From a virus: 46,041 nt of DNA. A program made the position numbers and the translations under genes. The notes beneath the pieces were generated by a model that worked only from the letters and a program-made list of their open reading frames with translations, was not told the DNA's origin and ran no database searches. Positions within the stretch are counted from its first letter, which is position 1, and every line of letters begins with the position of its first letter. The stretch is taken from the UHGV virus genome UHGV-1457062, one strand, 5' to 3'. Shown here piece by piece: positions 8,321 to 21,332 of the stretch.

Positions 8321-8638
8321 TCAAGGGCAATATCTTTGATAGGTGTTGTTTAACTGCGTTTCCCGGGCAATCTTTTCCTCTCGCTTCACTTCCATCAGAT
8401 CGATTCCCCCAGAGATACCTCTTTTAGCTTCTTCAAGTTTTGCAGGAGCATCAGCTAAGGTGACCTCAGGATACACACCTAGTGCTAACAGCTTCTCTTT
8501 ACCAGCTACACGATACTTGAGACGCCAATATTCTCCTCCACCAGGTTTTACCAGGAGGTACAGACCACCACCATCAGCCAACTTGTAAGCCTTCTCTTTT
8601 GGCTTGGCAGTGTCTATTTGACGGGCATTGAGTTTCAC
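8321..8638 (-). pseudogene. N-terminal fragment (105 aa) of a P4-type tyrosine integrase
   Basis: MKLNARQIDTAKPKEKAYKLADGGGLYLLVKPGGGEYWRLKYRVAGKEKLLALGVYPEVTLADA is the typical arm-binding N-terminus; premature stop, catalytic domain absent. Confidence 0.7.
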
Positions 8639-8790
8639 TTGGGGGTATCTCCACTAAACTGAACAGCAAATCCCCTCAATTGCTTGTAGAGTTTGGGGTA
8701 CTTAAATAGACGTCAAAAGACTAAAAGGGGCATTAATATACTGATTATAAGAGGTTTTTAAATACTTGAGTAGACTTGGGGAGACGTTAG

Positions 8791-8811
8791 AATGGTGCCG
8801 ATAATAGGAGT
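8791..8811 (-). repeat. 21-bp copy of the thrW tRNA-Thr(CGU) 3' end (att junction remnant)
   Basis: aatggtgccgataataggagt is identical to 20889-20909; reverse complement is the acceptor/T-arm 3' end ...ACTCCTATTATCGGCACCA. Confidence 0.65.
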
Positions 8812-8953
8812 AAAACACTCGATTAATCTCGTGTTAATGCCATCACCTACGACCATTACTAATTGATTGAATCTTATAGAAAAATCATCATTTTCTATGC
8901 GTCACAATCAATTTTCACATTACAAACGCTCCGACACTTTAGCCGGAGATTTT

Positions 8954-10231
8954 ATGAGATACAAGCCTAACCAATACTTAATCTGTGATTCTTACGGTAA
9001 CTACTATTTAAGGATCACGCTGCCTGTGTATATGCAGCCCTTTTTTGAAGGAAAAAGGACGTTTGTCAGAAGTCTGCACACAAGTAATCTTCGTGTTGCA
9101 CGTAGAAAGCGTGATCAGATTGCAGATGAATACCATTGCTTACGGGAGAGTGTTGCCCCTGTAAACAGCACAATAGAAAACACGCTGGAACTGTTACGCA
9201 GTAAGGCTAAATACGCCAAAACAGCTACCAGAATGCAAGATACAGCGTCTTCGTGTCCGTCATTGCTTAAAATTCTTGAAATCTACCTGACAATTAACAG
9301 CACGAAGAAGAAGCCAGCCACTTTAGCTAAGGCAAGAAAAGCGGTAGAGATGTTTCTCTCCTACCGTAAAAAGCCTGATATTGCATTGCAAGATGTAAGC
9401 CGCACCACTGTTACAGGCTGGATTGAACACATGCAAAAAACTCTTTCACAACAATCAATTGCAAATTATATCAGCCCAATGGCCCAGCTATGGGAATTAG
9501 CTTCATCACGTTACCACGATGCGCCAGAAAGGGCGCTCTCCCCCTGGCGAGGGCATAGGCTTGATGTGGCACAAAGTAGAGAGAGCTACGAGGCATTTTC
9601 TAACAAAGAGCTATTGCAGGTGTTGCAAGTATTTTCCGGTAATTCAGCAGAAAACAAAGAAATGATGGCTTTGTGTCTTATCGGTTTATATACAGGTATG
9701 CGGATCAATGAGATAGCAAGTCTCACAATAGACGATGTGAAAGAGATCGAAGGTGTGCTGTGTTTTGAAATCACACAGGGAAAAACGAAAGCTGCGGCAC
9801 GTCTTGTGCCTGTGCATAGCCTTATCACTCCGTTGGTGTTGTCGCTGCGTGAAAAGCCTCACAATGGCTTTTTGTTCTATCACGCCAGCATTACAGAGCG
9901 TGCTGATGGTAAACGTTCCACGTGGCATACGCAGAGATTTACAAGAGCTAAACGAAAGGCTTTAGGGGAAAAGGGAACAGAAAGGAAGGTGTTTCATTCT
10001 CTGAGACACGGAGTAGCACAGCTTCTTGATCGAAATCAAATTCCAGAAGACAGGATCGCCCTTCTCCTGGGCCATACACGCGGCAATACAGAAACATTCC
10101 GCACATATAGCAAAAATGCAGCTTCTCCAATAGAGCTTAAAAAATATATTGAGCTTTTACGCTACCCTGAAATAGAGAAAGGCTTATCAATCAATAAAAA
10201 ATCAAATTTAAGGCGTAAAACAACGCTATAG
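8954..10231 (+). CDS. int: tyrosine site-specific integrase
   Basis: ORF 8867-10231; GGAG RBS before ATG at 8954; C-terminal catalytic-domain motifs (...TGMRINEIASLTIDDV..., HSLRHGVAQLL, LLGHTRGNTETFRTYSKN). Confidence 0.85.
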   Translation: MRYKPNQYLICDSYGNYYLRITLPVYMQPFFEGKRTFVRSLHTSNLRVARRKRDQIADEYHCLRESVAPVNSTIENTLELLRSKAKYAKTATRMQDTASSCPSLLKILEIYLTINSTKKKPATLAKARKAVEMFLSYRKKPDIALQDVSRTTVTGWIEHMQKTLSQQSIANYISPMAQLWELASSRYHDAPERALSPWRGHRLDVAQSRESYEAFSNKELLQVLQVFSGNSAENKEMMALCLIGLYTGMRINEIASLTIDDVKEIEGVLCFEITQGKTKAAARLVPVHSLITPLVLSLREKPHNGFLFYHASITERADGKRSTWHTQRFTRAKRKALGEKGTERKVFHSLRHGVAQLLDRNQIPEDRIALLLGHTRGNTETFRTYSKNAASPIELKKYIELLRYPEIEKGLSINKKSNLRRKTTL

Positions 10232-10305
10232 ACGTAATAAAGAGGCTTCAATATAGATTGGTAGCCTCTTTTATGATTATCTCGCTACATCGTTCTTTAT
10301 AGGGA

Positions 10306-10962
10306 TTATTTCACTTCTCCGTCATACGTCGGAAGGGTGTCTTTAGTGGTGCTGGCTGTTCCTGCATTGGTTGGCACTTGGCTTTTTACCTGTCCGCCTG
10401 TGCTCTTAGGTGATGCGGTCTTTACAGCAATAGCGTTAGTAGTTGCATAACTCACTAATCTTATCTGTTCGAACTGCAAATCAAACTGTAAAGCTGATTC
10501 TGTTTTATATTCGTAGTCAATGCCTGTCAGAATCATATTATCAAACGTCTTATGCTCTGTGCTTACAATAATAGGCTGTCTGGCATTCATTATTTCATCA
10601 AGATAAGCAATAGCCTGTGAACACCTGTTACCGTTCACCCCTGCACTTGATAGCATATCACCACGTAATGCTAATGGTGTTTCTGTAATAATGCCTGAAA
10701 GCATAAGTTTATTATTCTTGATCCTGACATTATCAGATACATCATTACCATCCTGCACAGGATACGATGTAACATCGGCAGAACGTGAAACCTTAGTTGC
10801 CGGAACAGCGTCAAAAGTAATAGCTTTATAACTGGCTATCGTTGATGCATTCTCGTTATTCAGGTTGCTACATATAATGGCAAATCCGTTATCAGATTTA
10901 ACCTTGCTGTTAGATGTATTAATGTTAGATGTGCTGTTGATCTGACTTTCTTTGATAGCCAT
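10306..10962 (-). CDS. hypothetical protein (218 aa), Ser/Thr/Asn-rich
   Basis: Long ORF last in a co-directional block; no recognised motif. Confidence 0.55.
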   Translation of the reverse strand: MAIKESQINSTSNINTSNSKVKSDNGFAIICSNLNNENASTIASYKAITFDAVPATKVSRSADVTSYPVQDGNDVSDNVRIKNNKLMLSGIITETPLALRGDMLSSAGVNGNRCSQAIAYLDEIMNARQPIIVSTEHKTFDNMILTGIDYEYKTESALQFDLQFEQIRLVSYATTNAIAVKTASPKSTGGQVKSQVPTNAGTASTTKDTLPTYDGEVK

Positions 10963-19568: not shown

Positions 19569-19908
19569 TGCCTCCTGATATTTGAGAATTGTCGCTGCGT
19601 GGACCTGACGCCGCTGATCTTCGCGTTAAACATTGATCACGTCTGCGCCGATTTCAGAGAAAAAGACAGTAACTGAACTCACTATGAAGGCTAAACGTAT
19701 CTTTACACTTGATGAAAACGTTCAAAAAACAACCTAACCCCAAAATTCAACAAATTGCAACACATTGTTTTTAAAAGAAAATTAAATCTACATCAAATAT
19801 TGGTTGACGTAGATTGAGGTGAATAGTAGACTATTAGGGTAAATTACCACCCTTGTAACATCATTTAATGCATGTTCTAATCTTCCTATCGTAAAACCGG
19901 AGGAAGTT

Positions 19909-20067
19909 ATGCATTTACTTTCAAAACATCTTCACACTATTCACTTTCTCGTTATTGATGTATTCGTTGTGGCTATTAGTTACCGCATTTGCATCGCTTC
20001 CAGTGAAGAGATGGACGCTGTTGCAATTATTGCTCAAGCAATGGCGATGTTAACTAAACGACTTTAA
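19909..20067 (+). CDS. hypothetical 52-aa hydrophobic peptide
   Basis: Manually found ORF with GGAGGAAG RBS and upstream TTGACG/TAGACT promoter-like hexamers; single predicted TM helix. Confidence 0.25.
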   Translation: MHLLSKHLHTIHFLVIDVFVVAISYRICIASSEEMDAVAIIAQAMAMLTKRL

Positions 20068-20888
20068 TAATTTCACTATCAGGTGCATAAACACATCTTT
20101 GATCGCTGGATGTGTTATGCGCCTACTGGTGATTCAATCCTTAAGCCATTTCAACTCACTAAGGAGTTTTCTTTCTTCGTTCTCTCGCTGTTTACGCTCT
20201 AGCCAGGCTTTTCCTTCTGGCGTAGACAGGAACTTACGAGCGTGAATCTTGCGGTTATTACGTTTGATAGCTGCAATGTTTTTCATCGTGTGCCTCTGTA
20301 TTCATATGAAAATTAACAAGTTACATACTACACAGGAAGGCTACGCATAAAACACAATACAAGTAAAGATACATTTTCAAGACAATAGGAGCCATAAAGC
20401 GCCTTTGATGGTTATACCAAAAAATAAGCGCCGTAGGCGTATCCACTAAAAAGGGCTTTTTCACAAAAGCTATGAAGTCTTAGCAGTTCTTCTCTTATCA
20501 GGCACCCGTTGTACTCCGGTGGACGAAACCGTGCTAGAGCTTGATTCTTTCCCGATCAAGTTAGGTTTTGAAGAGGTGGGCTTTAATCCACTATGCACTT
20601 AAAACTCTTCCCATCATTTAGCCTGTTTATCCTCTGCAACGTCTCACGACGTGTAGCATCATTGGACACCGCGCCAGGTGTGGAACATCTTGCTAAGAGT
20701 TTTGGTAGAAGGTTTAGAGACGGTGGCACGTCTTCCAGCTTCAAAGGAACTTGTTACGAGGTTGAGCCTGTGAACTACTCGCCCATACGTGTTACACTAC
20801 CAAAGCCCATAACAACGTATAGGCGTTTGTAAGTGATAACAGAAGATACAATTTCTTAGAGAAGTTAAGCTAAGTTATTGATTTTCTT

Positions 20889-20936
20889 AATGGTGCCGAT
20901 AATAGGAGTCGAACCTACGACCTTCGCATTACGAAT
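20889..20936 (-). repeat. 46-48-nt copy of thrW tRNA-Thr(CGU) 3' portion (anticodon loop to CCA); P22-type att core, not a complete tRNA
   Basis: Reverse complement reads ATTCGTAATGCGAAGGTCGTAGGTTCGACTCCTATTATCGGCACCA; 5' half of the tRNA absent (sequence diverges at 20937). Confidence 0.7.
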
Positions 20937-21146
20937 CTGTAGCACCAATCATAACTATCTGTTTTAGCAAGCATTAACCGCATTCACTAACCTATAGTTG
21001 ATGGCACAAACAGAAAGTTGATGCATGATGTTGCCATGTGTATGTCACAAATACGGCACAACAATCTTCAAACATGTAGCCACCAGAATAGCACAACGCC
21101 TTGTGTACCATAGTTTTTCCACATCAACTACCGCAAGTATCGATAG

Positions 21147-21332
21147 ATGGAGGCTTGGATGTTAAACTTCATGACTTTGATTACTTGGTTGCATCACGAA
21201 ACTATTGAAGTGCAACTGGCACATGCCAACGGCGGATCTGTGCGCGGTATTTACAACCATGCTCAGTATCTCGATAAGCGCAGGGAGATGATGCAGTGGT
21301 GGGCGGACTGGATTGATGAAAAGGTGGAGTAA
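21147..21332 (+). pseudogene. C-terminal fragment of a P4-type integrase
   Basis: ...VQLAHANGGSVRGIYNHAQYLDKRREMMQWWADWIDEKVE matches the conserved P4-type C-terminus; no upstream catalytic domain. Confidence 0.6.

Follow-up and report, generated by a model that had tools for sequence, protein, structure and literature searches.

Layered occupancy of the tRNA gene thrW and a putative phage-borne integrase scar in an Escherichia coli prophage region

Introduction

How do pieces of several integrase genes come to lie around fragments of one tRNA gene, and which of those pieces record events at that tRNA? The question is raised by virus genome UHGV-1457062, a stretch of 46,041 nucleotides (the window, on which all positions are counted), in which partial copies of the tRNA-Thr gene thrW separate a vat-bearing island, a 12-kb phage-like element and a CUS-3/P22-like prophage. 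Earlier work already treats thrW as a hotspot of integration whose occupants can stand in tandem (PMC7545054; PMC8190617 for Sakai Sp1 and Sp2). A preliminary description of positions 8321-21332 had proposed that elements with different integrases used thrW in succession, with the vat island as the oldest, and that a P4-type integrase fragment beside the prophage att core might be either host DNA picked up by imprecise excision or the trace of an inversion.

We find an array that appears to hold four recognisable layers, the oldest being a very short relic. Our preferred reading, to which we assign a probability of roughly 0.82, is that a relic phage, the vat island, the 12-kb element and the CUS-3/P22-like phage inserted at thrW one after another, and that the integrase fragment beside the prophage att core, which is of the IntS type, was a scar that the last of these phages already carried when it arrived.

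Results

Partial thrW copies mark the element boundaries

Genome comparisons drew on 5,426 complete E. coli genomes. Positions 7000-20936 of the window recur, collinear and at 100% identity, in 25 genomes that lack the prophage, among them CU532-9, whose locus coordinates minus 2001 give window coordinates. In the annotation of CU532-9, yagU is followed by an integrase pseudogene, IS1 remnants, vat and a MarR-like gene, then by a pseudogene labelled 'Arm DNA-binding', a tyrosine recombinase that is intact, roughly a dozen phage-like genes and a serine recombinase, and finally by tRNA-Thr, which is on the minus strand, proA and proB. Its identity to the window ends at 20936, midway through the tRNA-Thr gene, and from 20937 rightwards the window is a CUS-3/P22-like prophage. 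The full tRNA continues past 20936 in at least 25 genomes, and thrW-proA follows in CU532-9, the one inspected.

The preliminary description of the partial thrW repeats is correct. The sequence TGGTGCCGATAATAGGAGT, the reverse complement of the last 19 nt of thrW, occurs exactly twice in the window, at 8793-8811 and 20891-20909, where 0.01 copies would be expected by chance. With the two preceding bases it forms a 21-bp repeat (8791-8811 and 20889-20909; family D4 of the repeat search). The left copy, on the minus strand, is the distal att repeat of the 12-kb element and consists of 19 nt of the thrW 3' end and 2 nt of flank. The right copy is the proximal repeat and opens a displaced 3' part of thrW (20889-20936, minus strand), in which the match extends to a 46-nt core (20891-20936) identical to the 3' part of annotated tRNA-Thr in related genomes. 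A complete thrW, whose presence inside the window would have told against this layout, was also looked for, and ARAGORN finds no tRNA gene in the window.

Related genomes show to which element each repeat belongs. A query spanning the left 21-bp repeat (8400-9200) retrieved 1,354 matching records, which were examined as an evenly spaced sample. The whole query, and with it the vat island and the 12-kb element together, is matched by 71 genomes; many others match 8400-8811 only and then run into a full tRNA-Thr (for example UTI89), and many match only from 8787 or 8791 onward (for example O104:H4 and 94_0962). The breakpoints are thus at 8811 in genomes with the vat island only and at 8787-8791 in genomes with the 12-kb element only. 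Because vat-only, 12-kb-only and combined genomes all break there, the 21-bp repeat brackets the 12-kb element (8812-20888). In UTI89, as in many other genomes, the vat island directly abuts a complete thrW, at the position equivalent to 8811 of the window. The 5' side of that complete thrW in the UTI89 assembly (locus 3394-3700) carries unrelated genes rather than proA; this is an insertion or rearrangement on the other side of the tRNA gene. In O104:H4 and 94_0962 the 12-kb element is the only occupant of thrW and is bordered on its other side by a yagP remnant.

The 46-nt core has a different owner. The same 46 nt form the core of the HK446 attP, and the P22 att region is 89% identical over 66 nt, so that the core can be assigned, by comparison of sequences, to the P22-like prophage, of the SfX/HK446 type. 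Two core lengths with different owners argue that two recombinases with different crossover regions used one tRNA gene, as had been proposed: the 19/21-bp core goes with the element carrying a DUF6538-type integrase and the 46-nt core with a phage of the SfX/HK446 type. Integrase subfamilies are reported by Williams (2002) to prefer either the anticodon-loop or the T-loop part of tRNA genes, and the difference in core length fits that preference.

The proposed tandem occupancy of thrW is thereby borne out. Direct repeats of the tRNA 3' end stand at element boundaries at both the 21-bp and the 46-nt site, each element boundary in the window falls exactly at a partial thrW copy and carries an integrase or an integrase remnant, and the units also occur independently in other complete genomes, with breakpoints at the repeats (vat-only, 12-kb-only, both, and empty-site genomes).

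As a separate observation, 35 nt beyond the left 19-nt repeat, at 8846-8868, the sequence CCTACGACC...ATTAC..AAT is similar to the stretch of thrW that comes next (CCTACGACCTTCGCATTACGAAT), perhaps as a longer att copy that has degenerated, perhaps by chance.

A P22/SfX-type integrase relic as the probable oldest layer

The vat island had been taken for the oldest occupant, an assignment that does not hold, since a P22/SfX-type integrase remnant lies beyond it and abuts what is the thrW junction in the empty-site genome Rb-50. This remnant (1398-1578, plus strand; tblastn and DNA alignment A1) comprises the last ~60 codons of a thrW-specific integrase gene, with an internal stop. It is 76% identical in amino acids to P22 Int residues 336-386, and its SGVSLLALK motif matches HK446 Int 326-334 in the tblastn comparison. 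PGAP labels it 'integrase, missing N-terminus', and intact homologues of this integrase converge on tRNA-Thr in many genomes. The relic is followed by the flank that precedes the core in phage attP sites. The segment 1579-1602, consisting of the flank GTAACTTATTGATTTAAA and TGG, marks both the point at which the integrase gene once met thrW and the distal limit of the vat island. Rb-50 has the corresponding empty site, with the order yagU, relic int, complete thrW and proA and no island between them, and matches to other genomes break at window positions 1594-1599. These comparisons identify 1398-1578 as the likely relic of the oldest thrW occupant. At the distal end of the vat island a third att repeat cannot be clearly made out; what survives is TGG or, at most, a match of 9 of 14 nt.

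A similar tail is present elsewhere. The distal thrW copy of K-12 and O104:H4 (ptwF, 49 nt) is bordered by the end of an SfX-type integrase gene, which makes the ptwF flank of K-12 a counterpart of the oldest relic in the window. In K-12 it consists of the last ~23 codons of an SfX/HK446-type integrase gene, at ~90% nucleotide identity, between yagP and the pseudo-tRNA ptwF (K-12 locus 36680-36900; O104:H4 locus 15900-16020), and the 'chromosomal' DNA flanking CP4-6 is therefore what remains of an earlier thrW prophage. The thrW of Rb-50 (locus 2946-3021) differs from the canonical gene at two positions that resemble a compensatory T-stem pair (CCTAT/GTAGG to CCTCT/GGAGG); the variant may reflect a 3' half that came from the ancient phage.

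A reduced vat island with a dead integrase

The next layer is a reduced vat island of ~7.2 kb (1600-8790). In the 100% identical region of CU532-9, the RefSeq annotation places IS1 remnants at 1798-2491 and vat at 3084-7214 (plus strand), and a Pfam MarR match identifies a MarR-like gene at 7340-7864 (plus strand). The island also holds the N-terminal fragment of a P4-family integrase gene (8302-8638, minus strand), ~113 codons long and frameshifted. The open reading frame (ORF) at 8321-8638 (minus strand) matches Pfam Arm-DNA-bind_3 (PF13356) with E=7.6e-24, the arm-binding domain found at the start of P4-family integrases, and of the three domains of that family it has this one only, which makes it a remnant. 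Across 8302-8638 the nucleotide identity to nt 1-339 (codons 1-113) of the intact 405-residue UTAK-5 integrase, whose gene lies directly downstream of thrW, is 92.6%. Like the P4-family integrases of islands, the fragment points away from the att repeat, and the identical truncation is present in all inspected vat islands (UTI89, CU532-9 and the window). We regard 8302-8638 as the probable dead integrase of the vat island.

A 12-kb phage-like integrative element with an intact integrase

Between the two 21-bp repeats, Pfam and PHROG scans outline a phage-like integrative element of 12 kb (8812-20888). Its integrase, at the distal end, is an intact tyrosine integrase of 425 residues with DUF6538, SAM-like and catalytic domains (8954-10231, plus strand; Pfam). 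Genes for a Dit-like protein (10306-10962), a tape-measure-like protein (11036-12937), a capsid-like protein (13323-14354) and an O-like replication protein (16257-16817) follow on the minus strand. About 1.7 kb without ORFs (17250-19000) holds five iterons of ~22 bp (18355-18493; repeat families D1 and D2), and an intact serine DNA invertase gene lies at 19017-19568 (plus strand).

The family is widespread at thrW, occurring in O104:H4, in a strain resembling enterohaemorrhagic E. coli and in B2 strains. Among sequenced phages no relatives of the element were found at the DNA level. As an isolated similarity, ~350 bp within the O-like gene (16506-16858) are 99% identical to the 151-kb phage Mt1B1_P17 and 95% identical to phage BI-EHEC. 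The element may be the counterpart of Sakai Sp1, and it might be a satellite-like element rather than a decayed prophage. We also considered intF of K-12 CP4-6 as a homologue of its integrase and set it aside at only 24% identity over 162 residues.

This integrase bears on the preliminary count of three integrase remnants in 8321-21332. Two remnants are there, and the third integrase of that interval (8954-10231) is intact. A third remnant does exist, farther left at ~1398-1578 (plus strand), and is P22-type rather than P4-type.

A CUS-3/P22-like prophage with a thrW-type attP arm

The first prophage DNA (20937-21103, plus strand) is an attP P' arm of the SfX/HK446/HK75/mEp213 thrW type, ~92% identical to the annotated attP regions of HK446, HK75, mEp213 and others. 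Core and arm stand together at the prophage ends in HS and TST3 as well. The prophage is thus of the P22/SfX thrW type in that its 46-nt core is thrW sequence and is joined to homologous attP arms; in other genomes a P22/SfX-type integrase converges on the reconstituted thrW. From 21465 the prophage, on the minus strand, runs past the right end of the window at 46041, with 94% identity to CUS-3, phiv205-1 and vB_EcoP-720R6 over 59-67% of the query. Its first gene is the tailspike (21465-23453, minus strand), followed by ejection, head and packaging genes.

The order of insertion

From the observed breakpoints and intermediate genome states we infer the temporal order and the crossover positions. 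With thrW on the minus strand, the intact gene would lie beyond the right end of the window, and each newcomer would have recombined with the intact tRNA gene, displacing the earlier elements and leaving a partial 3' tRNA copy behind. An ancient P22/SfX-type prophage would have come first, of which only the integrase 3' end (1398-1578) is left beside yagU. The vat island would have followed by means of its P4-family integrase, now truncated (8302-8638). The 12-kb element would then have entered through its DUF6538-type integrase, with a crossover within the last 19 nt of the tRNA that produced the 21-bp repeat, and the CUS-3/P22-like phage would have come last, its SfX/HK446-type thrW attP recombining in the anticodon-loop region to give the 46-nt repeat. 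The nested states observed (empty, vat, vat with the 12-kb element, and both with the prophage) fit insertion at the intact tRNA each time.

Several points weigh against this sequence of events. The intact thrW and the prophage integrase lie beyond the window, so that the right junction is drawn from related genomes and the attP arm. Structure alone cannot prove an order: a newcomer can use the distal att copy of a resident element, a route taken by Sp10 next to Rac (PMC2669165), and precise excision of the 12-kb element is conceivable, so that the vat-only state could in principle be secondary. The vat island, moreover, has no recognisable distal att repeat beyond the TGG, or at best 9 of 14 nt, described above.

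These points give some room to a different order, in which the 12-kb element came first and the vat island entered through its distal 19-nt att copy, or in which vat-only genomes arose by precise excision of the 12-kb element. Besides the Sp10 precedent for integration into a resident att copy (PMC2669165), this order can draw on the intact integrase of the 12-kb element and on the occurrence of that element alone at thrW in other phylogroups. However, genomes in which the vat island runs directly into a full thrW far outnumber the 71 in which the 12-kb element is present as well, and vat-only records make up a large share of the evenly spaced sample from the 1,354 matches; the integrase truncation shared by the inspected vat islands argues, in addition, for an old and immobile island. 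We consider a different order unlikely.

The integrase fragment beside the prophage is an IntS-type remnant

The second P4-family fragment has another origin. It had been described as lying between the att core and the tailspike, where P22 carries gtrABC, and this position is confirmed, although only ~21172/21202-21332 of the ORF at 21147-21332 (plus strand) derives from an integrase. Comparison with HK620, Dewey and chromosomal intS identifies 21172-21332 (plus strand) as the 3' remnant, the last ~44-52 codons, of an integrase gene of the IntS type, that is, an argW-type member of the P4 family. The last 44 codons of the ORF are identical to HK620 IntS residues 342-385 at 41 of 44 positions (93%) and only 57% identical to the C-terminus of an island integrase of the UTAK-5 type; the remnant has 92.9% nucleotide identity to the 3' end of Dewey int. 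Intact chromosomal intS genes (prophage CPS-53/KpLE1 at argW) match 21202-21290 with up to 97.8% nucleotide identity. What is left amounts to residues 342-385 of the 385 of IntS, and 21172-21332 encodes, of a P4-family integrase with its three domains, no more than the ~50 residues at the end; it is what remains of a family member rather than a functional one. Pfam finds no match in the ORF at 21147-21332, and PGAP calls the C-terminal fragment a pseudogene in HS and TST3.

The DNA around the remnant is phage sequence too. Its left neighbour (21094-21171, plus strand) is homologous to the region downstream of int in HK620 (86% over 78 nt) and contains the first of two terminator-like hairpins, with a 20-bp deletion relative to HS and HK446 (alignment A2). 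The first ~8-18 codons of the ORF (to 21171 or 21201) are accordingly sequence that is non-coding in HK620, and the frame of this chimeric start is not conserved in HS. To the right, 21343-21399 (plus strand) is a second copy of the HK620 int-downstream sequence, with the hairpin CTTGCAatccagCGCAAG that is annotated as a terminator in the HK620 record; a simple terminator scan of the window did not call it. The fragment is 210-265 bp from the att core, and all three frames of the intervening 20937-21146 contain stops, this DNA consisting of the attP arm and the HK620 non-coding homologue.

Three other arrangements were considered and rejected. An integrase split by an internal attP, as in SSV1, was raised by the intact int of Dewey, but the DNA from the core to the fragment is non-coding and filled with stops. 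A frameshifted extension of the integrase back to ~21135 was dropped because the bases in question have their match in non-coding DNA of HK620. Cross-matches had suggested direct repeats on either side of the fragment, but self-BLAST found none; it is the terminator-like sequence that is present twice.

The arrangement is shared beyond the window. Although 20937-21464 matches 2,131 genomes, mostly through intact intS, the joint between the thrW attP arm and the IntS remnant is itself present in 34 complete genomes, with identities of 87-96%. Junctions were inspected in HS, TST3 and the window, and the host flank on the left is different in each of the three. A joint shared by 34 genomes with differing host flanks argues for the scar of a module swap and against captured host DNA or an inversion. 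In Dewey and HK620 an intact int occupies the same position and orientation, converging on the tailspike, with attP upstream of int; P22 and HK446 have the order xis-int-attP, and the accessory region that follows is gtrABC in P22. An ancestor arranged like HK620 and Dewey (xis, the argW-type attP and intS, then the converging tailspike) would have had its int/att region replaced by a thrW-type cassette (int, attP, P' arm and terminator), and the last ~50 codons of intS with the sequence downstream would have stayed behind as a dead remnant. Behind the scar we infer a single recombination event. The remnant would then have been in the phage genome at integration and would stand outside the local history of thrW. 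We accordingly interpret the IntS fragment as a phage-borne scar of integrase/att module replacement, a reading drawn from comparative sequence evidence.

In a separate comparison, ~150 nt covering the IntS 3' end and downstream sequence (21249-21398) are 85.7% identical to phage 434 and the lambda h434 hybrid; IntS-tail remnants are therefore present in other lambdoid phages too.

One feature sits poorly with a dead remnant. The IntS remnant differs from its HS counterpart at ~13% of positions, mostly by synonymous changes that a dead remnant would not be expected to show unless it exchanged sequence with intact intS alleles, and the adjacent attP arm differs at ~3%; by our own count on alignment A2, differences between the prophages' remnants (21202-21332) are ~4 times denser than in the arm. 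The remnant is also nearer to intact intS alleles (97.8%) than to the TST3 remnant (~92%). The simplest reading of the synonymous pattern is gene conversion with intact intS genes.

The same data could be taken to mean that the remnant is kept because it is useful, as a small protein or as a homology patch for int/att swaps with prophages that bear intS. The joint does persist across prophages of 87-96% identity, and both the mostly synonymous changes between the window and HS and the closeness to intact intS (97.8%, compared with ~92% to the TST3 fragment) would suit a retained function. However, the chimeric ORF start is out of frame in HS, the fragment is a pseudogene for PGAP everywhere, it has no Pfam match and has lost most catalytic residues, and passive gene conversion explains the synonymous pattern equally well. 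Retention for use therefore seems improbable to us. Slightly less doubtful, though still speculative, is a narrower proposal: that the remnant supplies homology to intS for exchange of the int/att module, switching the integration site between thrW and argW, and that the divergence pattern is a trace of such ongoing exchange. intS is present in ~2,000 of the 5,426 E. coli genomes and also in HK620-like phages. If the proposal is true, a crossover in the remnant together with another in the early-left region that is shared would replace the int/att module in its entirety.

Capture of host DNA fares much worse. Lambda gal and lambda bio phages do carry off host genes, and a phage integrated beside a P4-type thrW island could in the same manner have carried off the 3' end of the island's integrase gene; P4-type island integrases adjoin thrW copies beside P22-like prophages, for example in HS, and the fragment is near the att core (210-265 bp). 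Such capture should leave a contiguous host flank on the matching att side. Island-side DNA would, however, land on the int side of the core and not on the tailspike side (P22 and HK446 maps), and island integrases are on the opposite strand. The fragment itself is of the IntS (argW) type (93% amino acid identity, compared with 57% to island integrases), and argW and thrW are not neighbouring loci; HK620-like phage sequence lies on both of its flanks, and intact homologues occupy the same position in free phages. Wrong att side, opposite strand and an argW-type lineage together make the suggested imprecise excision very improbable.

Least credible of all is the suggested inversion, in which 8321-8638 (minus strand) and 21147-21332 (plus strand) would be halves of one P4-type integrase: they are on opposite strands, represent complementary N- and C-terminal parts and have a DNA invertase gene (19017-19568) between them, but they come from different lineages (the C-fragment has 93% amino acid identity to IntS and 57% to the type of the N-fragment), each occurs alone (N in UTI89 and CU532-9, C in HS and TST3), their ~113 + 50 codons make up only a part of the ~400, no inverted repeats were found to bracket the segment, 25 prophage-free genomes match 7000-20936 collinearly at 100% identity, and the C-fragment has the same orientation to the tailspike as the intact int of Dewey and HK620. 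A search for an invertible segment of the Hin/Gin/Cin type found, apart from the invertase gene, only weak and scattered inverted repeats.

Outside the thrW array, 154-354 (minus strand), beside yagU, has an Rfam IS009 match (197 bits) that is unrelated to it; the Rfam scan found no matches in the region of the array.

Discussion

The locus exemplifies a known process and is ordinary in kind, though well preserved. Tandem tRNA arrays, at thrW exemplified by CP4-6 of K-12, VAT-PAI (PAI, pathogenicity island), PAI III-536, Sakai Sp1 and Sp2 and the P22/SfX phages, share with it partial direct repeats of the tRNA 3' end, integrases or their remnants at the boundaries, a newest element that adjoins the intact tRNA, and the occurrence of each element alone elsewhere. 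Nothing in the window differs in kind; its strain has four layers. The VAT-PAI of avian pathogenic E. coli (APEC; Parreira & Gyles 2003, as cited in PMC7545054) likewise places vat beside thrW between proA and yagU in DNA of low GC content, but the island in the window is only ~7.2 kb, compared with ~20 kb for the thrW PAI of APEC O1 (PMC7545054), and two later elements lie between it and thrW.

The att region of the prophage has close counterparts among thrW phages. Its core is the same 46 nt as in HK446 and its P' arm is 92% identical to HK446, HK75 and mEp213. As in P22, the att region lies between int and the tailspike-proximal accessory region. P22 carries gtrABC there, whereas the window phage lacks a conversion gene at this place and has just the IntS remnant with terminator-like sequence, and homology to P22 is confined to the core and the int-side flank (89% over 66 nt).

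The remnant shares with the IntS module of CPS-53/KpLE1, HK620, Dewey and CUS-3 its last 44 codons (93%), the downstream sequence, and the position and orientation beside the tailspike; it differs in that only ~13% of the gene is left and in that the argW attP, upstream of int in HK620, is replaced by a thrW-type module. Replacement of a functional module by an analogue of other specificity, with short conserved edges, is also what mosaic exchange among lambdoid and P22-like phages looks like, and the terminator-like sequence common to HK446, HK620 and the window phage is such an edge. Unlike a clean exchange at a boundary, the one in the window cut inside intS and left a remnant. Clark et al. 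(2001) are said to have described 'boundary sequences' in mosaic module exchange for HK620. The CUS-3 record carries the annotation 'bsq1' (boundary sequence).

Both a vat island at thrW and mosaicism of the integrase modules of P22-like phages were already known. The reconstruction in four layers and the recognition of the IntS scar add new detail of a familiar kind, and they do not change the current understanding of site-specific integration or phage mosaicism. What the locus offers is a clean, checkable layering of a tRNA hotspot, for which every intermediate state is present in public genomes. It carries two lessons for reading such loci: the outermost recognisable island is not necessarily the first occupant, and an integrase fragment beside an att site may have been imported by a phage rather than left by a local event.

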